IMG/VR virus record: IMGVR_UViG_3300025296_000034
Location: 1-42,022 of that record
DNA length: 42,022 nucleotides
DNA from: a virus
Lineage: Duplodnaviria; Caudoviricetes
Direction: 5' to 3' (one strand)
A program made the position numbers and the translations under genes. Below the pieces are notes generated by a model. That model saw only the letters and a program-made list of their open reading frames with translations, was not told the DNA's origin and did not search any database. How positions within the stretch are numbered: the first letter of the stretch is position 1; each line of letters opens with the position of its first letter. Shown here piece after piece: positions 3 to 21,362 of the stretch.

Positions 3-3000
3 GGGGGGGAGCCGAAGGACTGGACCTCCAGCGAGCAAACGGAGTTTGCCGAGCTGATGGGTTTGGCTGAAAGGCACCGCGAGGAGCTTGAGTGGCGGGC
101 GAGCGAGCAGGCGAAGGAACGGGCGCTCGGCATCCTCTCTGGTACTCCCGTGCCCGCGCACACGATTAGCGAACTCGCCCGGCTGCGCGAGCGCGGCAAC
201 CAAGCCCTGGAAGAGTCCGTGATCTCTCAGCACGAAGCTGACCTCGCCCGGCAGGCAGAGGGGTTGGCCCCAGAAGCCGCTGTGGAGCCCGCTGTTGAGG
301 GCGGGATCCCTGAGCGTCCGAGGCCCACCCAGCAGCCTGCGGTCACTGAGGAGCCTGTGAGCGCCCCTCAGGCCCCTGTGCAGCCTGAGCCGCAGCCAGC
401 CCCCTCACCGCTGACCTCCAGTCAGGTCAAGCGGATACGGCTGAAGCGCGGTCGGATGGCTGCTCGGCTCGCGCGGCTGATCGAGCGGGACGTTGAGCAG
501 GGGCTGGATCCTGACAAGGACGAGGCGGTTCTGGAGCTACGCCAGGAGATCGACCGCATGCCGCGCCCGCCGATGGAGGCTGTGACGCCGCCGAGGCGGG
601 AGGAGCCGAGCCGCCAGGAGCAGGCCATCGAGGCGGCAGAAGCGGGCGAGCCCTTTGTCGCGCGTGAGCCTGGGGCCGAGTGGGGCGAGGAGCCCGCGCC
701 CGCGCGGCTAGACACGCCTGAAGCCTACGAGGCGTGGCACAAGCGTACCTTCGCCCCAGACGAGGCCGAGGGGTATGACGTAGGGGCTAACGCCGCGCTC
801 ATCGCGGACACCCTGCGGGACGAAGACGTGGGGATGCTCGTTCTTGTGGACATGCCCGTGGAGCGTTTGGACGTGGGCGTGGGGCCTGAAATTGACTACC
901 GGGCGGATCGGTACGAGGAGCTTCTGCGCATGAGCCCCGAGGAGGCTGCGGCTCTCCCCCCGATCACCGCCATCGAGCAGCGGGTTGTGTCCCCGGCTGG
1001 CGATGTGGGCAAGCAGACGCAGCCCATCGACGGCGCGATGCGCGTGGCGGCGTTGCAGAAAAACCCCAACGTCACGACGGTACGCGCCTACGTTTCTCAG
1101 AAGATGATGCCCAGGTATGTGATGTGGGGCGCTCGCCAAGTAGATCCCACGGTCGCAGAGCGTCCCACCTCGGGCATCGAGCCCGCGCCCGCGCCCGACA
1201 CGCCCGCCTTCCGCAACTGGTTCGGGGACGGGATAAGAGACAAGAACGGTGACCCGCTGGTGCTGTACCACGGGACGCGCGGAGCCCAAACCCCCGAGGG
1301 CCGCGCGCCTTTTGACGTGTTCGATGTGGAGGGCGAAATGGGTGCCCACTTCGGAACAGCCAGGGCTGCTCAAAAGCGCCTGGAGGGAACCCGCATGGCG
1401 TGGACCGGGCAGACCCGCGCGGGTTGGGGTGGCGAGGCCATCATGCCGGTGTATCTAGCCATCCAAAACCCATATCAGATTGACGACATGCTCGATTCTT
1501 GGGGTCCGGGGCATGTCTACCTACAGATGGTGCATGACGACGACCTCGACTGGAGTTTGTGGAAGGGTGGCCGACGCGGGATGGAGGAAGACTTGGAGTG
1601 GGGCGACCCCGCCCCTTTACAGGACTTCCTGAGACTCAACGGCTACGACGGTCTTGCATACATCAACAAGGTGGAGGATTCCGGCTCGACCTCCTACGTC
1701 GCCTTCGACTCCACCCAGGTCAAGTCGGCCACGGGCAACGTAGGCGCGTTCGACCCCGCCGACCCCAGCATCGTGCGCGAGCCCGCAGCCGAGTGGGGCG
1801 CGGAGGCCGCGCCACCTGGATCGTCCGTTCCCTTGGCGACCGGCGAAGAGACGCTAGACATCAAACCGACAGGCAAGCGCGGCCAGCCAAAACTGGTGGA
1901 CGTGGCTCGCGCAACAGCGCGGCGCGCAAAGCGCACAGGGTCACATATCCCGTGGGCGCAGCATGACGAGGAGGCGGAGGCCCTAATAGCTCGCTCCCTC
2001 GGCCACGAACTCGAGTATCAGTTGCAGCAGGGCGGCTTGGATAGCGGGGTTGGGTGGTACACAACCGCCGTCGATCAGATGTTCGAGGCCCTGTCGCAAG
2101 AGTTCCCTGAACTCGCCACCGAAGGCAGGGCTCGCGCAATCTACACGATGTTCCTGGCCATTGGGTCTAACGGGGTCACGGTACACCAGAACGTGACATC
2201 CGCGCTCACCGCCTATCGCGGCTTCAAGAAAAACGGGTCGCTATACCAGCCAAAGGCTACTCTCGGCGCGGCAGCGCCCGCCCAAAAGAAGGCCATGCGC
2301 ACCATGCAGGCGGTGGCGAAGCGTGTTGGGTTAGACGCTGCGCTTGCGGCGCTGGATCGGGAATCGACCAAGCGCGAGTTTGTGGCCGATGGGTATCGCG
2401 TCGGCGGCGAGCTTATGGACTCGACCGTGCCGGGCTCGGCGGTTTATTGGGGTCCAAAGGTTGGGGTCTTCTACGCCAACATGCGTGGGCGCACGCACCT
2501 GTTGACGATGGACCGATGGTTTGTCCGCTCGTTTGCGAGAGCCACCGGGAACATGGAGGGCAATACCCCGCGCGCCCTATCGAACCAGCGCGCCGCCCTG
2601 CGCGAGGTTTTGCCGAAGGGCCGCATCAAGGGGTGGCGTCGCGGGCAGTTGATGAAGGACGACGCCTACCTCGACGAGTACGCCCTTGAGCTTGAGGAGG
2701 CTTACCGCAACGCGGACTACGAGTTCAAGACGCCCCTAAACATCAAGGCCAATACATTAGGGAAAACCTTGAACAAGGGCGGCGTCCTTCGCGAGTCTCC
2801 TGCCAGCGGCGGGGAGAGGGCGTTCATGCGCCGCACGATTGTGCGCATACAGGCGGACAGAGCGTCGGCTGGCCTGCCGTTCGTCGCGGTCGCAGACATT
2901 CAGGCTGCGCTGTGGTACTATGAGAAGGCGCTACACCGTGGATTTGGGACCGCAGACCTAGCTAGTGCGGAGACAGACTATGCCCGAGCAACAAGAGAGC

Positions 3001-6000
3001 AACTTGGAATACCCGCCGATGAAGCCGCACCTCGCGGACGACGAGGTGGAAGAGCCGCTAGTGACGACGGGGGAAGAGGAGGAGCGCCACTTGGCGAGGA
3101 TGTCCAAGCGGGCGGCGTCGTCCGAGAACGACCCGCGCCCGCCCCAGTCGACTTAGGCTTCCCCGAGGGCACGGCGACCGAGGAGGAGGTTGCGCGCCCC
3201 GAGGCAGCTCAAGAGGACCAGCGCCTCGCCACGCTGCTGCAAGGCGGCGAGATCAAGATGGGGTCCGAGGACTCGATCTCCGCGCTCGCGAGCAACTACG
3301 TCCACAACCCTGGCCCCAACAGCTTCGCGGTCGTTGGCAGCCGGGTCGAGTCCGACACCGACGCGGCGGTTCTGTTCAGCCTGCTTCGCTCGCCGCACGT
3401 TGAGCGGTCCTCATACATGGTCGTGGACGAGGACGGGGTGGTGGTGGCGAGCGGCATCCTGAATGTTGGCGGGATGTCCATGTCTGTCTTCCCGCACCCG
3501 ATGGAGACTCCAGGTGCTTCGGCACCCGCCGCGCGGCCTCTGGTGGAGGCGGTGCAGGAGGTGCGAGGTCGCGGACAAACGCCGACCGTTTATCTGGCGC
3601 ACAACCACCCATCTGGCAACCCCAAACCCTCGGCGCAAGACATAGAAACATACGCTGGCCTTGGGGATATGGTGAACGGGCTTGGGGCGGGCATGGTGGG
3701 GCTCATCACGGACGGGGAGCAGTTTTCCGTATACGAAAGCACCGACACGTCGGTTGATCGTGAGCACCCCTACCGCGACATCCCTCCAGGTTCACCGCCC
3801 GAAGCCTACGTCACCCTCCACGACTACACCCCGCTGCGCGACAACTACCAAGGCCCGGCCTTCCTCCTCAAAGGACGCGCACCTAACGTGCGGAGCAACG
3901 CGGCTGTTGTTGACCTGTTGCGTCGGGTCACCGTCGACCCAGGGTCGGTTGTGGTGATCCTTCACGACACCCTGGGGCTGGTGCAGGGCGTGGTAACCAT
4001 GCCCGCAGCGCCGAGCCCTGAAGCCTTACGGGCGCTCCTCGACCAGCACGCGGGCTCGGGTGCGATCCTGGTGATGGAGAAGGATGGGCCGGGGGGGACG
4101 CCCCATTCGGCGCACCGCCTCGGGGAAGGCTACGGGGGCGCGGCAACCAGTGTCGTGCTCGTCGATAAAGACGGGCGTAGCGGGCTGGGGTGGCGGGGAA
4201 TTCCCGGCGAGTGGAGGAGAAGGCAAGGCGAGGAGGCCGTGCAGTCTTGGATGGAAGGGCAGGGCCTGCTGAACGAGGCTCAGGCGGCTAACAACAACGC
4301 CAACAGCGAGTCGGTCACGGTGGCGCGCGAGAACCCGGCGAAGCACAAGGTTGATGTTTCGATCCCGCTCGCCGCGCGCGCGAAGCGTCAGCTTTTTACG
4401 AAGGGCAACCTCCCCTCCACAGCCTTCGACCTGGATGTTGGGCGCAAGGGGCAGATCGCTGCGCGCGAGCACCAAGTCAAGGCTGCGCTGGAGTCGTTCC
4501 GCGTGGCGGCGAAGGAGGCTTACGGTTCCGACCGCCTCACGGACGAGCAGCTTGGCGCGCTCAACGAGGTGCTCGCCGGGCGCGCGGAGGTGGGCACGAT
4601 CCCCGAAGGGATGCGCCGCCCAGTTACCGGCATGCGCAAGATGGTGGATGCGCTCTCGCGCGACCTGATCCGGTCGGGGGTCATCGAGGGCGACATGCTG
4701 GAAACCGTTCAGAACAACATGGGGTTCTACCTCACGCGCTCGTACCGCGTGTTCGATGACCCGACTTGGTCGAAGAAGGTGCCGGAAGAGACTGTGCGGC
4801 GTGCGCACTCGTTCCTCGCTGCGGAGTTCCCCGAGAAGTCCGACGCGGAGATCAACGGGATGATCAAGCACCTGCTCCACGACGGCAAGGCGGCGGACTC
4901 ACCGATGGCCCTGATTGCGCAGAGCCAGTTGGGGGCGAAGGATCTCTCGATCCTCACGCGGCGCAAGGACATAGCCCCTGAGATCCGCGAGTTGTTCGGG
5001 GAGCACATCGACCCGCGCATCAACTTCGCGCGCTCGGTCGCCAAGATGTCCTTCCTGGTAGCCAACCACCGATTCCTCGAGGAGGCGCTCGCGGCTGGGC
5101 TGGAGGGCGGGTGGATACGCAAGCCTGAGGATGGGGCGACGCCCACGAACTTCGTGCAGATTGCGCCTGAAGGCTCGGACGTGATGAACCCGCTGTCTGG
5201 GCACTACACCAGCCCAGAGATTGCGCAGGCGTTCGAGGACGCCACGGCCAAGGAGGAGGTTCCCGACTGGCTGCGCATGTACCTGAAGCTCAACGGTGCG
5301 GTCAAGGTTGGCAAGACCGTCCTGTCGGTCACGACGGCGCAGCGCAACGTCCTGAGCAACATCGGCTTCGCGCTGACAGCCGGGCACTTTGAGTTCTGGC
5401 ACGCCAAGAAGGCGTGGGCCGCGACATGGAACCAGATCCTGCGCAAGCCCAAGGAGAAGCACCTCGAGTACGTCACCCACCTGATCGAGCTGGGCGTGCT
5501 GGACGAGGGGGCTCGGCCCGGCGAGTTGATGGAGATGATTCGCGAAGCCTCGCAGTCGGACATGGCTTCGCAATTCCTCGAGTCGCGCGCGATGCGGATG
5601 GCTAAGGCACCCTTCCGTGCGGCCATGCGTTACTACCGCGCGGGCGACATGCTCTGGAAGGTGTACGGGTTCGAGAACGAGAAGACGCTGCAACGCCGCA
5701 TGAACCCCAAGGCGTCGAAGGCGGAGATCGAGCGGCTCGCTGCGAAGACGGTTCGCTCGTCGTACCCCACCTACTCCATGGTGCCTCGCCTCGGCAAGCA
5801 CCTGCGCCGCTTCCCGGCGTTCGGCACGTTCATCAGCTTCCCCGCCGAGGTCATGCGCATCACGGGAACGACGACGGTTCGCATCAAGAGCGAGCTGTCG
5901 AGCAGCAACCCTGAGGCGCGGCGGGTTGGCGCTCGCCGTCTTGTTGGGGCCGGGCTCGCGGCATCCATCCCCAGCGCCCTCGCGTGGTACTCGCGCTACC

Positions 6001-6905
6001 TGTTCGGGATCGACTGGGAGGACGAGAAGGACATGCGCGAGTTCATGGCATCGTGGAACCAGAACGGGGAGCTGTATTGGAGCAAGGCTGGCGACGGCTG
6101 GCTCGGGTTCGTCGACCTGAGCTACGTCGACCCGTTCAAGTACGTCAAGACGCCCATCATGGCTCTGCTGGCAAACCACTCCATCGAGGACGCGGTGAGG
6201 GAGACGGTCACCGAGTCGATCAAGCCGTTCCTGGGGGAGGAGATTCTCTTCGGCAAGATCAAGGAGGCTTACGCCATCGGCACCGACGCCAAGGAGCAGC
6301 CTTTCTGGACCCGAGGGCTGCCCTTTGACGAGCGCGCTCAGGAGGTTCTCAGCACGCTGTGGGAGGCTTTTGAGCCCGGCACTATTAGGAGCCTCGACCG
6401 GACGTGGAAGGGCATACGCGGCTACGAGAGCCCTGGTGGGGTGACCTACGACCCCACCCGCGAGATGGTTGCCATGTTTACCGGCCAGCGGCTGACGGAG
6501 TTCAACCTCGAGCAGGCCGTGGGGTACAGGTCCAAGGACTTCTCGCGAGAGTGGGGCGACGCCACGCGCCTCATCACGGGCACGCTCGGTCGGCGCGGAA
6601 CCGTGACGGACGCGGAGATTCGCAAGGCGCTGGAGAACGGCGAGCACGCGCGGCGCGAGGCGTGGGATGGGATGCAGCGGCGGCACCGCGCGGCGATGCG
6701 CCTCGGCCTCTCGGACATGCTACTCGAGGACATCTACCGGGAGGCGGGCCTGTCCTCCAGGCTGGCCCTGGATGTGACCTTCGACGATTACCTGCCCTGG
6801 GAGATGTCTGGTTCGACAGAGAAGCGGTGGGAGGACAAGCTCGGGTTTGAGGAGTGGGATCGGCGGCGTGGTCTGCTGGAGGAGTGGGCTGGTGAACAAC
6901 GGTAA
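3..6905 (+). CDS. C-terminal ~2300 aa of a giant polyvalent internal virion (DNA-ejection) protein: ParB/Srx-like, ART-PolyVal-like ADP-ribosyltransferase, HhH-glycosylase-like, JAB/RadC and helical C-terminal domains; 5'-partial
   Basis: Frame is open from base 3, upstream of the tracked ATG at 57. Motifs: PPITA..PIDGAMRVAAL (ParB-like); FRNWFG..PLVLYHGT..PVYLAIQNP..GYDGL..YVAFDSTQVKSATGNVGAFDP (ART-PolyVal-like); GVGWY..GPKVGVFYANMRG..LTMDRW (HhH-like); YLAHNHPSGNPKPSAQD (JAB). Probably continues the ORF starting at 40065. Confidence 0.85.
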   Translation, partial: GGEPKDWTSSEQTEFAELMGLAERHREELEWRASEQAKERALGILSGTPVPAHTISELARLRERGNQALEESVISQHEADLARQAEGLAPEAAVEPAVEGGIPERPRPTQQPAVTEEPVSAPQAPVQPEPQPAPSPLTSSQVKRIRLKRGRMAARLARLIERDVEQGLDPDKDEAVLELRQEIDRMPRPPMEAVTPPRREEPSRQEQAIEAAEAGEPFVAREPGAEWGEEPAPARLDTPEAYEAWHKRTFAPDEAEGYDVGANAALIADTLRDEDVGMLVLVDMPVERLDVGVGPEIDYRADRYEELLRMSPEEAAALPPITAIEQRVVSPAGDVGKQTQPIDGAMRVAALQKNPNVTTVRAYVSQKMMPRYVMWGARQVDPTVAERPTSGIEPAPAPDTPAFRNWFGDGIRDKNGDPLVLYHGTRGAQTPEGRAPFDVFDVEGEMGAHFGTARAAQKRLEGTRMAWTGQTRAGWGGEAIMPVYLAIQNPYQIDDMLDSWGPGHVYLQMVHDDDLDWSLWKGGRRGMEEDLEWGDPAPLQDFLRLNGYDGLAYINKVEDSGSTSYVAFDSTQVKSATGNVGAFDPADPSIVREPAAEWGAEAAPPGSSVPLATGEETLDIKPTGKRGQPKLVDVARATARRAKRTGSHIPWAQHDEEAEALIARSLGHELEYQLQQGGLDSGVGWYTTAVDQMFEALSQEFPELATEGRARAIYTMFLAIGSNGVTVHQNVTSALTAYRGFKKNGSLYQPKATLGAAAPAQKKAMRTMQAVAKRVGLDAALAALDRESTKREFVADGYRVGGELMDSTVPGSAVYWGPKVGVFYANMRGRTHLLTMDRWFVRSFARATGNMEGNTPRALSNQRAALREVLPKGRIKGWRRGQLMKDDAYLDEYALELEEAYRNADYEFKTPLNIKANTLGKTLNKGGVLRESPASGGERAFMRRTIVRIQADRASAGLPFVAVADIQAALWYYEKALHRGFGTADLASAETDYARATREQLGIPADEAAPRGRRGGRAASDDGGRGGAPLGEDVQAGGVVRERPAPAPVDLGFPEGTATEEEVARPEAAQEDQRLATLLQGGEIKMGSEDSISALASNYVHNPGPNSFAVVGSRVESDTDAAVLFSLLRSPHVERSSYMVVDEDGVVVASGILNVGGMSMSVFPHPMETPGASAPAARPLVEAVQEVRGRGQTPTVYLAHNHPSGNPKPSAQDIETYAGLGDMVNGLGAGMVGLITDGEQFSVYESTDTSVDREHPYRDIPPGSPPEAYVTLHDYTPLRDNYQGPAFLLKGRAPNVRSNAAVVDLLRRVTVDPGSVVVILHDTLGLVQGVVTMPAAPSPEALRALLDQHAGSGAILVMEKDGPGGTPHSAHRLGEGYGGAATSVVLVDKDGRSGLGWRGIPGEWRRRQGEEAVQSWMEGQGLLNEAQAANNNANSESVTVARENPAKHKVDVSIPLAARAKRQLFTKGNLPSTAFDLDVGRKGQIAAREHQVKAALESFRVAAKEAYGSDRLTDEQLGALNEVLAGRAEVGTIPEGMRRPVTGMRKMVDALSRDLIRSGVIEGDMLETVQNNMGFYLTRSYRVFDDPTWSKKVPEETVRRAHSFLAAEFPEKSDAEINGMIKHLLHDGKAADSPMALIAQSQLGAKDLSILTRRKDIAPEIRELFGEHIDPRINFARSVAKMSFLVANHRFLEEALAAGLEGGWIRKPEDGATPTNFVQIAPEGSDVMNPLSGHYTSPEIAQAFEDATAKEEVPDWLRMYLKLNGAVKVGKTVLSVTTAQRNVLSNIGFALTAGHFEFWHAKKAWAATWNQILRKPKEKHLEYVTHLIELGVLDEGARPGELMEMIREASQSDMASQFLESRAMRMAKAPFRAAMRYYRAGDMLWKVYGFENEKTLQRRMNPKASKAEIERLAAKTVRSSYPTYSMVPRLGKHLRRFPAFGTFISFPAEVMRITGTTTVRIKSELSSSNPEARRVGARRLVGAGLAASIPSALAWYSRYLFGIDWEDEKDMREFMASWNQNGELYWSKAGDGWLGFVDLSYVDPFKYVKTPIMALLANHSIEDAVRETVTESIKPFLGEEILFGKIKEAYAIGTDAKEQPFWTRGLPFDERAQEVLSTLWEAFEPGTIRSLDRTWKGIRGYESPGGVTYDPTREMVAMFTGQRLTEFNLEQAVGYRSKDFSREWGDATRLITGTLGRRGTVTDAEIRKALENGEHARREAWDGMQRRHRAAMRLGLSDMLLEDIYREAGLSSRLALDVTFDDYLPWEMSGSTEKRWEDKLGFEEWDRRRGLLEEWAGEQR

Positions 6906-16933: not shown

Positions 16934-16974
16934 CGGGTTTCCTAGTAGGGGGCTACGGTCAGGCCCACGCTGGC

Positions 16975-17052
16975 TGCGTGTCATTCGAGCGTGACCGGGC
17001 TGCGTGTCATTCGAGCGTGACCGCCGGCGTGGATGCGTGTCATTCGAGCGTG
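16975..17052. repeat. Three exact copies of a 19-bp repeat TGCGTGTCATTCGAGCGTG
   Basis: Copies at 16975-16993, 17001-17019 and 17034-17052; the last contains the methyltransferase stop codon. Confidence 0.95.
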
Positions 17053-18579
17053 GGCCATAGCAGTCGCACGGCTCTCTCAGCTTGTGCGGGGACCACGCTG
17101 TTGCCCAGGGCTCTCAGCCGATCGGTTCTGTATCGCTGGGCAGCGTCCACCAGATCGGAAAGCCCATCAGCCACTCCACGAAGGTCGGGTTGAGTCGGCG
17201 CTTCTCCGAGAGCTGGGTGGAGGAACTCGGGGATGCTTCCCCAGTTGTCGCCGGGGCCGGGGGGGAAGGCAGGTAAGGGCTGTGGTCCCACTCCTCTATC
17301 GAGGGACACGGGCACTCGTGGGCGTGGATCGCGTGGATATTGCACAGGTAATTCTCGCAGTCCGGGCACGGCGTCCACGCCGGCGTCTGTTCTTGGTGAT
17401 GCACTGCGAAGTTCGCGACCTGTAGATCTCCCCCCCCGCTCTCGTGGCGCCCCAGTTCCTGCTTGCGTTGGGCGCTCTCCGCTCCTCCCGTCAGCGCCCT
17501 GGGCGTCGGCCACTGTCGGCCCTCCGAGTTCCCGCTCACCGCTGCATCCGTGAGAGACACGCCTTTGTTCGCCTTTGAGTTTGGGGTGTTCCTCGACCCC
17601 GCCGCCTTGTGATCCCCTGCTGTCGGCGTCGGCCACTGCAGACTCGCGATCGTCAGCGGCGTCCCTGCGCCGTTGCTGTTGTAGCCCTTCTTCTTCAGTT
17701 CTTCCCGACGAGCCAGCCAGGTCGTGGGGTCTTCCCCGTCCTGAGAGATCCTCGCATTCGGCGTCGGCCATGCTTCTCTGGGAACCTCCTTCGGCCACTG
17801 CCCCGCCTGGATCTCCGCTACCTGTTCCAGCCCCGGCGAGCTGCTCTGCCCCCCCCCTGACCGGCGACCGTTGTTCACCGACCTCTCCATCGCCCGCGCG
17901 CTCTTGCGATTCGTTCCCGCGCAGGGCGTCGGCCACTCCCTCGCCATCCCCTCGAGGATGGGTTCGTTGCGGCTTGTTGTAAGCCACATGAGCCCCCCCC
18001 GAGGTCGGGGTTGACCACTCCTTCTCGGAGCCATCGGCCACACTCGGAGGAGTCGAGGTCGCGGTCCCAGGCGCAGATGAACAGCCGCTCCCGGCGATGC
18101 GGTGCGCCGACATCAGACGCACGCACAAGGCCCCAGCGCGCATCGAACCCCAGCGAGGCAAGGTCGGAGAGGACAACGTCGAATCCCAGGCGAAGGTGCC
18201 CTGCGACGTTTTCAAAGAATGCGAATCGTGGTCGTACCACGCGAAGGGTGTCGCGGATGGCCGGCCAGAGATGACGCTCGTCGTCGGCACCCTTGCGGGA
18301 ACCGGCGTGGCTGAAAGGCTGACACGGGTAGCCACCGCAGACGAGGTCGATGCTTCCGGCAAGAGGTCGCAGGTCCAGCTCACGCAGGTCTCCGCACCAA
18401 ACAGGCGCTGGATCCAGGGCCTCGTCCTCCATCCGTCCCAGGAGGACGGACGCACAGAAGGGGTCCCGCTCGACATAGGCCACCACTCGCGCATGGAGTG
18501 CGCGGCGGATCCCGAGGTCGAGACCCCCGATGCCTGAGCAGAGCGATAGCACGCGGAGGGGAGTATCCACATCGGTCAT
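17040..18579 (-). CDS. DNA (cytosine-5) methyltransferase, alpha-type polypeptide, frameshifted near a G8 tract (17993-18000)
   Basis: Motifs I (SLCSGIGG), IV (GGYPCQPFS), VI (ENV) and VIII (HRRERLF) are in ORF 17875-18579; motif X (RLRALGNSV) is in frame 17040-18572; deleting one G gives a continuous 512-aa ORF. Confidence 0.85.
17114..18572 (-). CDS. Overprinted alternative-frame WPTP-repeat polypeptide carrying MTase motif IX (beta-type subunit), frameshifted in the same region
   Basis: N-part MWILPS..SLKTSQ..LPRWGSMRAG; repeats WSTP and WPTP x4; C-terminal RRLNPTFVEWLMGFP; deleting the same G gives a 485-aa ORF. Confidence 0.65.
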
Positions 18580-18818
18580 GTCCTTTCCGGCGCCGAGCCG
18601 GGGACGGCAGCTTCGTGGTAGAGCGCGTAAACGGCGGTGCCGTCATCGAGGTGACGCTCGAGGCGGTCCTCGGTCGTGCCCGTGAAGGTGACGCTGATAG
18701 GCGCGACGCCAACCTTGCTGGCGCGCTTGTTGATTCGCTCCACGCGCTTGTGGACCTCATCGAGGAGGTCTTCGCGCACGAAGGCGGAGGAGGCTTCGGT
18801 CGTGGTTGTGGTGGTCAT
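18576..18818 (-). CDS. Hypothetical protein, possibly a truncated N-terminal fragment
   Basis: 80 aa; TGATG and ATGA overlaps with both neighbours. Confidence 0.6.
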   Translation of the reverse strand: MTTTTTTEASSAFVREDLLDEVHKRVERINKRASKVGVAPISVTFTGTTEDRLERHLDDGTAVYALYHEAAVPGSAPERT

Positions 18819-19240
18819 CAGCCGTTCTCCCTGGCGTAGGTGCGCTGCGCGGCGAGCCCGCAGTCCTCGCAGAGGTATTCCTCCTCCACCGAGGTGAACT
18901 CGTCGCTGCAGCCGTCGCCGCAGTTGTGGCAGTAGTGAGGCTTGGACTGGTCGACCTCGATGCTGTGGATCACGGACTCGGACAGGTCGCCCATCCCGGT
19001 GAAGAGGCCGCGACGGCGAATCTCAGCGAAGTACACGGAGATCTCGTCGCGGTAGTAGCCGCCGGTCTTGCCCTTGCAGGCACCGGCAAGCTCGAGAGCG
19101 TCAGCGGCAACTGCCGCTTCGTGCGCGTCGCGACAGGCACCGCAGAGTTGCGCGAGGTCCATCTCGCGAGCACGGGCGGCGAGCGCAGCCCAGTCAGGGC
19201 TGGCGTCGCGCGGGGAGGCGGGGATGTGATAGGTGGTCAT
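18818..19240 (-). CDS. Hypothetical protein with C-terminal zinc finger
   Basis: ATG 19240 after AAGGA; CHNCG..LCEDC. Confidence 0.7.
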   Translation of the reverse strand: MTTYHIPASPRDASPDWAALAARAREMDLAQLCGACRDAHEAAVAADALELAGACKGKTGGYYRDEISVYFAEIRRRGLFTGMGDLSESVIHSIEVDQSKPHYCHNCGDGCSDEFTSVEEEYLCEDCGLAAQRTYARENG

Positions 19241-19263
19241 CGGTCGGTTCCTTCTAGGTTGTT

Positions 19264-19311
19264 GGTTTCGCCCTGCCGGGCTCATCAGGTGCGCGGCGTC
19301 AGCGCACGACC
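19264..19311 (-). ncRNA. Type III hammerhead ribozyme
   Basis: Minus strand reads GGUC^ GUGCGC-UGACGCC-GCGCAC CUGAUGA GCCC-GGCA-GGGC GAAA CC: intact core, GUC triplet, 6-bp stem I, 4-bp stem II, 3-bp stem III. Confidence 0.85.
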
Positions 19312-19335
19312 GGGGCCGAAGCCCCTTTCGGTCAT
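19285..19335 (-). CDS. Possible 16-aa ORF spanning the ribozyme (MTERGFGPGRALTPRT)
   Basis: GGAGG 7 nt before the ATG; ATGA overlap with the upstream stop; its TGA is the first UGA of CUGAUGA. Confidence 0.4.
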   Translation of the reverse strand: MTERGFGPGRALTPRT

Positions 19336-19592
19336 CGCACGCCCTCCGTGAGGTTCTGGAGTCGGACACCGTCCAGGAGGCCGCGACCGTAGGCTTCCGC
19401 CTCGCGGATCCCGTGGGCCGTGTTGATCCTCTCGGAGATATTCATGGTCTTCTGGTAGAAGTAATATCTGGTCACGCCGTCGCCGCTGGCGAGAACGCAG
19501 GGGCCTCCCCGCCGAACGGTCACATAGGGCAGTTGGCATTCGAGCCGACCCCGAAGGGCCTGGAAGCGTTGTTTGTTGGATTGGGTGGTCAT
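19332..19592 (-). CDS. Early hypothetical protein
   Basis: 86 aa; AAAGG RBS and shared ACAGACCGATGAC start cassette. Confidence 0.7.
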   Translation of the reverse strand: MTTQSNKQRFQALRGRLECQLPYVTVRRGGPCVLASGDGVTRYYFYQKTMNISERINTAHGIREAEAYGRGLLDGVRLQNLTEGVR

Positions 19593-19631
19593 CGGTCTGT
19601 ACCTTTCGGGGTGTTGGGGGTTGGTCGGATG

Positions 19632-20006
19632 TTAGAGGAGGGCGTCGTTGTGCGCCTCGACGCCGAAGGCCATGCCTTGCTGCTGCGCGTACTCGTCGCG
19701 GTCTGCACGCTCGTCGGCGGCGGCGGCGGCGGTACGGTCGGTTGCAGTCTCTTTGCGCAGGCAGCGCACGCGCAGGGTCTTCAGGGAGGCGAGCCCCTCG
19801 TTGGTGCGCGTACCCTGAGCCAGTTCAACCCACAGTTCCCCGCCCGTCTGGAACGGGCATTCAGCGACGTGATCGGCGCTGGGGCGAGAGAAGGCGGTGC
19901 AGGCTTCCTTCAGGGTGGAAAAGTCCGCGCCATCCCAGCATTGGTCAAGTTCGAGGCGCGGGTCGGATCCGTGGTAGTTGATGGAGTAGTTGCTGATGTT
20001 CTTCAT
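19632..20006 (-). CDS. Early hypothetical protein
   Basis: ATG 20006 within the repeated GAACGGAGACCAAGCCATGAAGAAC cassette; 124 aa. Confidence 0.75.
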   Translation of the reverse strand: MKNISNYSINYHGSDPRLELDQCWDGADFSTLKEACTAFSRPSADHVAECPFQTGGELWVELAQGTRTNEGLASLKTLRVRCLRKETATDRTAAAAADERADRDEYAQQQGMAFGVEAHNDALL

Positions 20007-20323
20007 GGCTTGGTCTCCGTTCTTGGTGTGGTGTGGTGGTGAGTGGTTAGGAGCGGCTGCGAAGCCACGCGATGTTGCGGAGAGATTCCCGAGTTTGCCC
20101 GGAGAGGTGAACATCTTCAGAGAGGAAGTCGGCAGGCATACGGCGTCCTGTTTTCGAGACGGCGAAGCCTTCGATGACTCGACCGCTTGCTATCAGCGCG
20201 TCCATAGCGGGCTCTCCTGCCGCGTAGCCGCCCACGGTGTCCCAGTTGAAATTCGCTCCAGGCTTCTTCGCCAAGATGGCGATGATGAGGTCGGTGGGGT
20301 TCTTCATGGCTTGGTCTCCGTTC
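19998..20323. repeat. Exact 25-bp direct repeat (19998-20022, 20299-20323) covering the RBS and first codons of two adjacent genes
   Basis: GTTCTTCATGGCTTGGTCTCCGTTC present twice. Confidence 0.95.
20047..20307 (-). CDS. Early hypothetical protein
   Basis: ATG 20307 within the same 25-bp cassette; 86 aa. Confidence 0.75.
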   Translation of the reverse strand: MKNPTDLIIAILAKKPGANFNWDTVGGYAAGEPAMDALIASGRVIEGFAVSKTGRRMPADFLSEDVHLSGQTRESLRNIAWLRSRS

Positions 20324-20348
20324 GGGGTAGGTGGTGAGGAGTCAGGGG

Positions 20349-20621
20349 TTAGAAGGGCTGGCCGTGGGGGCCGAACTTGAGCAGCTCGAACTCGTCCTTG
20401 GTGGGCTGGTCGCACTCGTCGCAGACTCCGAGGGTGACTAGCTCGGCCTTCAGCGCATCGTCGTGGGCGACGATCTGGGACAGCGCATCCTCGTCAACGG
20501 GGGCGTATCCGATGAACTCGTCGCGTGACCCGTACATACTTGTGTCGGAGATTGCCTCGTAGGTGGCGCGGGCAGCTTCGCGGAGTGCGAGGAGGGTTTC
20601 GATGCGGGAGTCGTGTGTCAT
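20349..20621 (-). CDS. First gene of the leftward early operon; acidic hypothetical protein
   Basis: AAGGA RBS; 90 aa; one CxxC. Confidence 0.7.
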   Translation of the reverse strand: MTHDSRIETLLALREAARATYEAISDTSMYGSRDEFIGYAPVDEDALSQIVAHDDALKAELVTLGVCDECDQPTKDEFELLKFGPHGQPF

Positions 20622-20648
20622 CGGTCTGTCCTTGTGGGTAGTGGTTAG

Positions 20649-20679
20649 CCGTCACCGTGACGGTAGGAGGAGACTAGCA
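20649..20679 (-). promoter_or_regulatory. Extended -10 early promoter (TGcTAGTCT) with operator CCGTCAC-C-GTGACGG (20649-20663) at the predicted start site
   Basis: TGn-TAGTCT on the minus strand at 20679-20671; the palindrome is identical to the one at 12556-12570. Confidence 0.55.
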
Positions 20680-20843
20680 CAGGATCGACCGGAGGGGGAG
20701 GCACCTTCTGCAAGAAAGTTGCACGGACGCAAGAAAGTGTCACAGGGCAAACCCTTGAAAATGAGGGATTTACGAGCAGGATCACCTACTTGCTACCGAT
20801 TCTGGCGCTTTACAGCTCTGAGATTTCTCCCCGAGGCAGCGAC

Positions 20844-21362
20844 ATGACCCAGGACATCACCGTTACAGGACAGGTCACAGCCGTCATCCTCCGCGCAGAC
20901 GGCTCGGTGAGGCAGAAGCTCGAGGGCAATAACCTCGTCACTACCATGGGGCTGCGGCACTACGCTGAGAGGTTCGAGGAGTCGTTCAACGGCACAGCCG
21001 TCACCAGCACCTTCACGACCTTTGTCGTAGGCACAGGCTCCACCGCCGCCGACATTGGCGATGACATGGCGGACATGACCCAGTTCACCGGCACCACGGG
21101 CGAGCAGGTGCTCGCGTCGGGCTACCCCAAGATCGACGACGACGACACGGACAACAGCGGGCGAGGGGCGTTCGTCCTGACCTGGCACGCGAGCTACGGC
21201 ACGGGTACGACACTCTCGGCAATCAGGGAGGTGGCTATCAGCATCGCAGCGCCGGAGGAGGTCACGCCTGACCCGCTGCTCATGCGGCACGTCTTCGGTG
21301 CGCCATTCACGAAGACCACCGACGAGACGCTGAAGATCTTCGTCAATCACACGCTCGCCTGA
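20844..21362 (+). CDS. Virion structural protein (head/tail accessory)
   Basis: NLVTTMG..VVGTG..IREVAI..MRHVF..KTTDETLKI pattern of phage structural proteins; GAGG RBS. Confidence 0.6.
   Translation: MTQDITVTGQVTAVILRADGSVRQKLEGNNLVTTMGLRHYAERFEESFNGTAVTSTFTTFVVGTGSTAADIGDDMADMTQFTGTTGEQVLASGYPKIDDDDTDNSGRGAFVLTWHASYGTGTTLSAIREVAISIAAPEEVTPDPLLMRHVFGAPFTKTTDETLKIFVNHTLA

Follow-up and report, generated by a model that had tools for sequence, protein, structure and literature searches.

Does a self-cleaving ribozyme that lies between two small phage genes depend on translation of the gene in front of it? The question arises from IMGVR_UViG_3300025296_000034, a 42,022-base record of an uncultured virus (~53% complete, GC ~65%) whose sequence occurs in marine metagenomes; "the window" refers to this whole stretch of 42,022 bases. 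A sequence-only reading had proposed that a hairpin and a very short open reading frame (ORF), both immediately upstream of a hammerhead ribozyme, couple cleavage to ribosomes that terminate or re-initiate there.

A type III hammerhead between two small genes

The ribozyme is located within a minus-strand series of small genes without assigned function, from about 20,600 to 18,600. This series is upstream of a DNA methyltransferase gene, with RecE- and RecT-like genes further along. Repeated leaders (families D2, D3 and D7) and frequent AUGACC starts are common to the series, AUGACC being the commonest gene start in this phage. The ribozyme sits between small genes of the same strand, directly before a ribosome-binding site (RBS).

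The upstream gene (19332..19592, minus strand) encodes 86 aa of unknown function (GC3 0.78). An 84-codon overlapping frame from 19539, which includes the small ORF, was rejected as a real gene (GC3 0.46 vs 0.78). Two substitutions in run X12, read by eye and too few to weigh, both change the 86-aa protein, and in the overlapping frame one of them is silent. The 86-aa protein gave no match in Pfam or PHROG. One protein search returned the query alone, others gave no other viral loci and no longer relatives, and we conclude that true syntenic homologues are lacking outside this phage population. A further search gave a single weak match of the same size (E 2e-4); its remaining matches, mostly multi-stretch and in long proteins, were left out.

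The downstream gene (18818..19240, minus strand) encodes 140 aa of unknown function, and its leader and purine-rich RBS (19241..19263, minus strand) would lie on the 3' cleavage product. To judge from its sequence, the 140-aa protein is probably a fusion. An 82-aa relative (P0003, 70% identity) covers its first half alone, and two CxxC motifs are found in the second half.

Other parts of the window were also annotated. A 2282-aa polyvalent protein (57-6905, plus strand) has matches to ART-PolyVal (E 3e-14), a RadC-like JAB domain (E 8e-6) and a virion protein. Matches to DNA cytosine methyltransferase occur in two overlapping minus-strand frames, 17875-18579 and 17114-18043, and the arrangement suggests that the gene at 17114-18579 is split or frameshifted. 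A 99.9%-identical genome, L125, is without 60 bp of this region (17407-17466). The gap after the methyltransferase (16972-17056) contains a 26-nt repeat three times (family D1), two of the copies being identical and head to tail.

The ribozyme itself (19311..19264, minus strand) was assigned to the type III hammerheads from Rfam RF00008, its sequence and covariation in 46 relatives. On the minus strand it comprises GGUC (19311-19308, with the cut predicted after C19308 of the GUC triplet), a 6-bp stem I (19307-19302/19294-19289) with loop I UGACGCC, the core CUGAUGA (19288-19282), a 4-bp stem II with a GGCA loop (19281-19270), and GAAA (19269-19266) followed by a 3-bp stem III. The CUGANGA...GAAA core and NUH triplet required of a type III hammerhead are present as CUGAUGA, GAAA and GUC. 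Stems I and II are closed and stem III is open (6, 4 and 3 bp), and the minimum free energy (MFE) structure without the upstream flank is the hammerhead fold. The Rfam Hammerhead_3 model (RF00008, clan CL00010) gives 25.8 bits (E 0.008), a score that does not reach the gathering score of 48.5.

Stem I and three loop I–loop II pairs covary in the 46 relatives. The three loop pairs are paired in 31, 43 and 36 of these, compared with 23.5, 37.8 and 30.6 after shuffling, in a set partly selected with these loops in the search pattern. GCC/GGC pairing between the two loops is possible at the locus, and all three covarying pairs are kept. Across the window, 19288-19282 is the sole core with a closed stem II. 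Readings as type I or type II were tried and rejected: the sequence holds no partner strands for them and, if the upstream GAAA and hairpin are taken as stem III, there is no way to form stem II, and two Gs would have to bulge out. A search for intrinsic terminators (GC hairpin plus U tract) over 18500-20900 on both strands found no terminator-like site.

The outer arm is the predicted blocker

A GC-rich, cUUCGg-capped hairpin (19312..19325, minus strand), of a kind common in the relatives, adjoins the cleavage triplet. Outside it lies an arm (19330..19343, minus strand) made of the last codons of the upstream gene, its stop and AUGACC, and folding predicts that this arm pairs with GGUC as well as with stem I and loop I. 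The hairpin of the sequence-only reading is indeed present and part of the MFE structure, where it is longer than had been claimed: its 5' arm begins at 19343 and additionally pairs into stem I and loop I. The proposed pairing of GACC with GGUC, at the expense of the 3-bp stem III, is likewise predicted in silico by MFE and constrained folding, with the outer arm as the blocker.

We estimated the ensemble cost of imposing the active fold on the RNA, using folding energies that leave out Mg2+ and the loop–loop contact. This cost is 1.1 kcal/mol without the flank and 1.4 kcal/mol with the inner GC hairpin alone; it rises to 4.6 kcal/mol once GACC is included and to 7.7 kcal/mol with 45 nt upstream. 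Since the inner hairpin alone adds 0.3 kcal/mol, it is harmless, and the outer arm is the element that blocks. GGUC can likewise be captured by a GACC that lies downstream, ahead of the next start (cost 5.1 with 35 nt of downstream sequence), which illustrates the ease with which this phage's start motif pairs with the cleavage site.

How far this exceeds chance depends on the comparison. The hairpin segment of 46 nt has a z of -2.2 (6/200 shuffles equally stable) and the entire 111-nt region a z of -0.9 (32/200). The active-fold cost is matched by 6.4% of 500 shuffles in which the inner hairpin was kept, by 11.7% of 300 full shuffles and by 19.8% of 490 actual 31-mers of this phage; with a 50-nt flank, it is matched by 3.5% of 200 shuffles. 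The sequence features are thus real, and on these models the blocking arm is borderline in its excess over chance.

When the upstream stop region was masked (through stop+3 to +9, mimicking a terminating ribosome), the cost fell from 9.1 to 1.4-3.5 kcal/mol. Mutually exclusive folds, one of them overlapping a translated stretch, are therefore present in silico. On the upstream piece, the hairpin is predicted to reach 9 bp (-13.9 kcal/mol) once GACC closes onto the freed terminal GGU.

The translation signals were found at the claimed places. A Shine-Dalgarno-like GGAGG (19343..19347, minus strand) lies within Thr-Glu-Gly codons of the upstream gene and is followed, after a 7-nt spacer, by an AUG (19335-19333) that overlaps the upstream UGA (19334-19332). 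This AUG opens the 16-codon ORF MTERGFGPGRALTPRT (19335..19285, minus strand), whose stop is, as stated, the first UGA of CUGAUGA. The GGAGG, its spacing and the AUGACC of the small ORF look like other starts of this phage.

Related phage hammerheads share the layout and rarely the arm

Contigs from viruses, metagenomes and genomes were scanned by pattern, which yielded 151 raw type III matches, reduced to 93 non-redundant loci, of which 85 were usable (enough flank and a stem II of at least 3 bp). The scan patterns fix GGUC and GAAACC, so the sample is biased, and one contig scan covered 33/64 parts of its collection. Loci L219-L224 were kept out of the counts. Locus L191 failed the stem I filter through one mismatch and was added by hand to the AUG-frame and masking/shuffle analyses. 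An upstream stop was assigned at 56/86 loci; the source locus is not among the 56, and the assignments at L160, L173 and L175 are weak. No match was obtained in an exact-core scan of viral contigs, and cultured phage genomes likewise yielded none. Stem III has 3 bp in 22 of the 93 loci and 3-5 bp in 78.

Within the 30 nt preceding the cleavage site, a stable hairpin (z<=-2) was found in 37/85 relatives and in 5/85 control windows (p 9e-9). A stable structure lies within 8 nt of the end of the upstream piece in 56/85 relatives, a count made without control windows. The median distance from upstream stop to cut is 32 nt (56 loci; 26 nt at the source locus), and that from cut to next start is 66 nt (67 relatives; 68 nt at the source locus). 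By sequence, the order stop, GC hairpin, ribozyme, RBS and start is recurrent across phage hammerheads.

Blocking follows a different pattern. Interference from the upstream flank is below that of the locus's own shuffles in 62/85 relatives (p 3e-5), with a median added cost of 0.3 kcal/mol. Only 5/85 are in the upper 5% tail of shuffles, which is about chance, and strong blocking (at least 5 kcal/mol) is seen in 9/85. With 6.6 kcal/mol of added blocking, the source locus ranks 6th of 85 and is an outlier.

An AUG overlapping the upstream stop is present in 9/56 relatives, and these loci are not more blocked than others (p 0.29). Of the nine overlapping-AUG frames, two (L105 and L191) have the core UGA as their stop, a share not above the one in three expected by frame. 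An A precedes TGA stops, giving AUGA, in 8/20 cases, against 10.7% A at third positions (p 7e-4); this is not significantly above the A before TAA/TAG (6/36, p 0.10). The AUG of the core is in frame with the downstream gene at the source locus and at 29/67 loci overall (p 0.057). The expectation that hairpin and small ORF would be conserved together beside homologous ribozymes mostly fails: the GC hairpin recurs, whereas the blocking arm and the ORF do so rarely.

The scans gave some further observations. Two to four hammerheads per contig, one small gene apart, were seen at L194, L200/L199, L131, L183 and L174. About half of the matches in the L126-L185 scan are type I hammerheads with an identical stem II, and in many of these type I matches a stop codon lies within or just before stem I. 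At L041 and L042, a hairpin ending in GGUCC is followed by a second GGUC that the ribozyme uses, a layout resembling a duplicated cleavage-site strand that absorbs an upstream GGACC.

The two closest relatives, L202 and L191, resemble the source locus in having a hairpin that adjoins GGUC and an AUGA 6-9 nt before the hairpin. L202 is closest in its upstream flank and is 2nd of 85 in added blocking (11.5; matched by 2.5% of 200 shuffles). Its upstream GGCAU pairs with loop I, as GGCGU does at the source locus (GGCRU in both), and masking of its stop region lowers the cost from 13.3 to 0.7-3.7. Its AUG frame continues past the core for 57 codons. At L191, AUGA opens a 20-codon ORF that stops at the core UGA, blocking is at chance level (31.5% of shuffles) and masking gives partial relief (8.5 to 4.5). 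Strong blocking and a core-ending ORF thus each recur once, in L202 and L191 respectively, and never jointly. Of the three closest ribozymes that were compared, the source locus included, two are strongly blocked. The upstream frame of L191 resembles what we take to be a methyltransferase start, cut off after ~30 codons, and this truncation fits relic starts left by shuffling.

Gene cassettes are shuffled around the ribozyme

Neighbouring genes at the ribozyme vary between sister genomes and runs (L210, L125 and X10). In L125, 352 bp are missing, comprising the 86-aa gene, the hairpin and the ribozyme. The junction lies in a 14-bp gene-start repeat (family D7) with copies at 19232..19245 and 19584..19597. 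This deletion junction was seen as a loose end in runs X1 and X5, and read depth in X1, possibly the source sample, was 9.2 on the gene–hairpin–ribozyme unit vs 22.6 and 19.7 on its flanks. In L210, also 99.9% identical, the unit precedes a different downstream gene and the core AUG is out of frame. A single contig of X10, read by eye, keeps the 86-aa gene and GGAGG unchanged and has other sequence from 19339, where the frame stays open for the 30 letters shown, without AUG or hairpin. A second X10 contig, likewise single and read by eye, carries the 140-aa gene behind a different leader, and this leader also precedes the 86-aa gene in P0005. From sequence comparison, we conclude that the small-gene region consists of cassettes shuffled at repeated gene-start leaders: some alleles carry a deletion, others a different downstream gene or a different leader. 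On the same comparison, the arm and the small ORF arise at a junction that is one among several alleles.

A probable processing site with by-products

The reading that we favour, and hold to be probable, is that of an intergenic phage hammerhead serving as an mRNA-processing site with a 3' end-cap hairpin, of which the arm and the small ORF are by-products. Hammerhead cleavage produces an upstream piece with a terminal 2',3'-cyclic phosphate and a downstream piece that begins with a 5'-OH. Here, the hammerhead would cut a polycistronic message between two small genes, so that the upstream piece ends in the GC hairpin and the downstream piece starts with the 5'-OH stem I hairpin, 68 nt before the start codon. 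After the cut, GACC closing onto the terminal GGU may lengthen the end-cap hairpin. Both pieces would be expected to resist exonucleases and to decay independently. The inner hairpin is likely a 3' end cap or a folding insulator.

The outer arm may have a more accidental origin. Cassette shuffling would have placed the module after a gene end or coupled start of the ordinary GGAGG..AUGACC form; the GACC of this sequence presumably complements GGUC by accident, and the 16-codon ORF is likely a relic coupled start. In naked RNA the arm is predicted to block cutting; a ribosome that completes the upstream gene is predicted to cover it. The arm would then be tolerated because translation normally clears it; with a terminating ribosome covering the arm, the locus would function under translation and may cleave slowly without it. 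Ribosomes translating the small ORF would act oppositely, by unfolding the ribozyme, and would be left on a non-stop message by a cut in codon 10.

Part of the earlier proposal is retained in this account. That a terminating ribosome could free the ribozyme agrees with the lower folding cost under masking, and folding models make it plausible that the upstream gene's own ribosome acts as a gate. A designed switch finds no such support in conservation: a purpose-built ribosome switch is unlikely, and translation dependence, if any, is probably a passive side effect. A selected gate would have the arm keep the ribozyme off until the arm is covered by a ribosome ending translation of the upstream gene, leaving untranslated messages uncut. 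Masking relieves blocking both at the source locus and at L202, and the arm is transcribed before the ribozyme, within the last codons and stop. Against selection, however, L191 is blocked to an extent within chance and only partially relieved, relatives in the 5% tail are as few as expected, AUG overlap does not go with blocking, the pair formed by the source locus and L202 was chosen post hoc, and the GGC of GGAGG-type gene ends and the GCC of loop I exist for separate reasons. We hold a selected gate to be doubtful. The narrower version, in which a small marine phage clade (the source locus, L202 and perhaps L191) has a translation-gated self-cleaving ribozyme that cuts translated messages only, is in our judgement just as doubtful.

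Control by re-initiation at AUGA, with translation of the 16 codons unfolding the core and so setting cleavage, is highly improbable. The start signals resemble real starts of the phage, comparable core-ending ORFs exist in L191 and L105, and the core AUG shares the frame of the downstream gene at the source locus. Yet the small frame is not conserved (2/56 relatives, chance level among the overlapping AUGs, with the L202 frame running on), and GGAGG persists in the X10 sister allele with no AUG after it. The in-frame core AUG is similarly inconstant, falling out of frame in L210, and the small peptide lacks any regulatory codon run. The non-stop ORF that a cut in codon 10 would leave also argues against this route. 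It is unlikely, too, that recent recombination accidentally silenced the module by setting the ribozyme behind a misfolding sequence, so that it cuts poorly and is being lost. The high predicted cost of the active fold and the absence of the unit from part of the population would agree with such a loss, but the core, stems and three loop–loop pairs are intact, no substitution is listed in the hairpin or ribozyme among the sequencing runs covering them (2017 and 2024), and the leader-repeat deletion takes the whole gene rather than the ribozyme alone.

For the favoured processing site, the layout measured on 85 loci points to the cutting of long early transcripts into end-protected single-gene messages. 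Since alleles that carry the module and alleles that lack it both occur naturally, the source locus lends itself to a compact test.

Relation to known systems

In ribosome-mediated attenuation with leader peptides, a short ORF overlaps alternative RNA structures. The source ORF also overlaps alternative structures, whereas the run of regulatory codons, the terminator and the conservation are lacking.

Compared with the type III hammerheads of RF00008, the ribozyme shares the CUGAUGA/GAAA core, the GUC triplet, the closed stems I and II and the open stem III, as well as a loop I starting with U and a loop II ending with A. It differs in its score below the gathering value, in a stem III of just 3 bp and in its setting in a DNA phage operon.

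Hammerheads of phages and prophages were reported to flank variable genes and to form loop–loop pseudoknots in each of the three types; a role in processing long phage transcripts was proposed, and cleavage was shown for three clusters (Perreault et al. 2011, PMC3088659). The source ribozyme is likewise between small genes with variable neighbours and has loop I–loop II pairing; it stands alone in its 42-kb fragment and not in a cluster. Regulated cleavage is raised there as a possibility. The main-text passages of that paper make no mention of an upstream hairpin or of translation control, and its supplements may hold these sequences. The function of phage hammerheads was described as unresolved in the relevant part of a 2019 review (PMC6765202). 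In the literature, where coverage of subscription journals was thin, we found no natural translation-gated phage ribozyme.

According to the same review, as far as its relevant part goes, glmS was as of 2019 the only well-understood regulated bacterial self-cleaving ribozyme (PMC6765202). Both glmS and, by prediction, the source ribozyme self-cleave within an mRNA. As described there, glmS depends on a cofactor, has another fold and occurs in a conserved gene context, and nothing comparable is seen at the source locus. The predicted effect of the outer arm is closer to that of an engineered upstream strand, which pairs into a ribozyme and lowers its self-cleavage in the passages describing it (Jacobsen et al. 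2020, PMC7192461). That system is synthetic, eukaryotic and not ribosome-operated; if the outer arm does gate cleavage by translation, the phage locus would be a natural ribosome-operated ribozyme.
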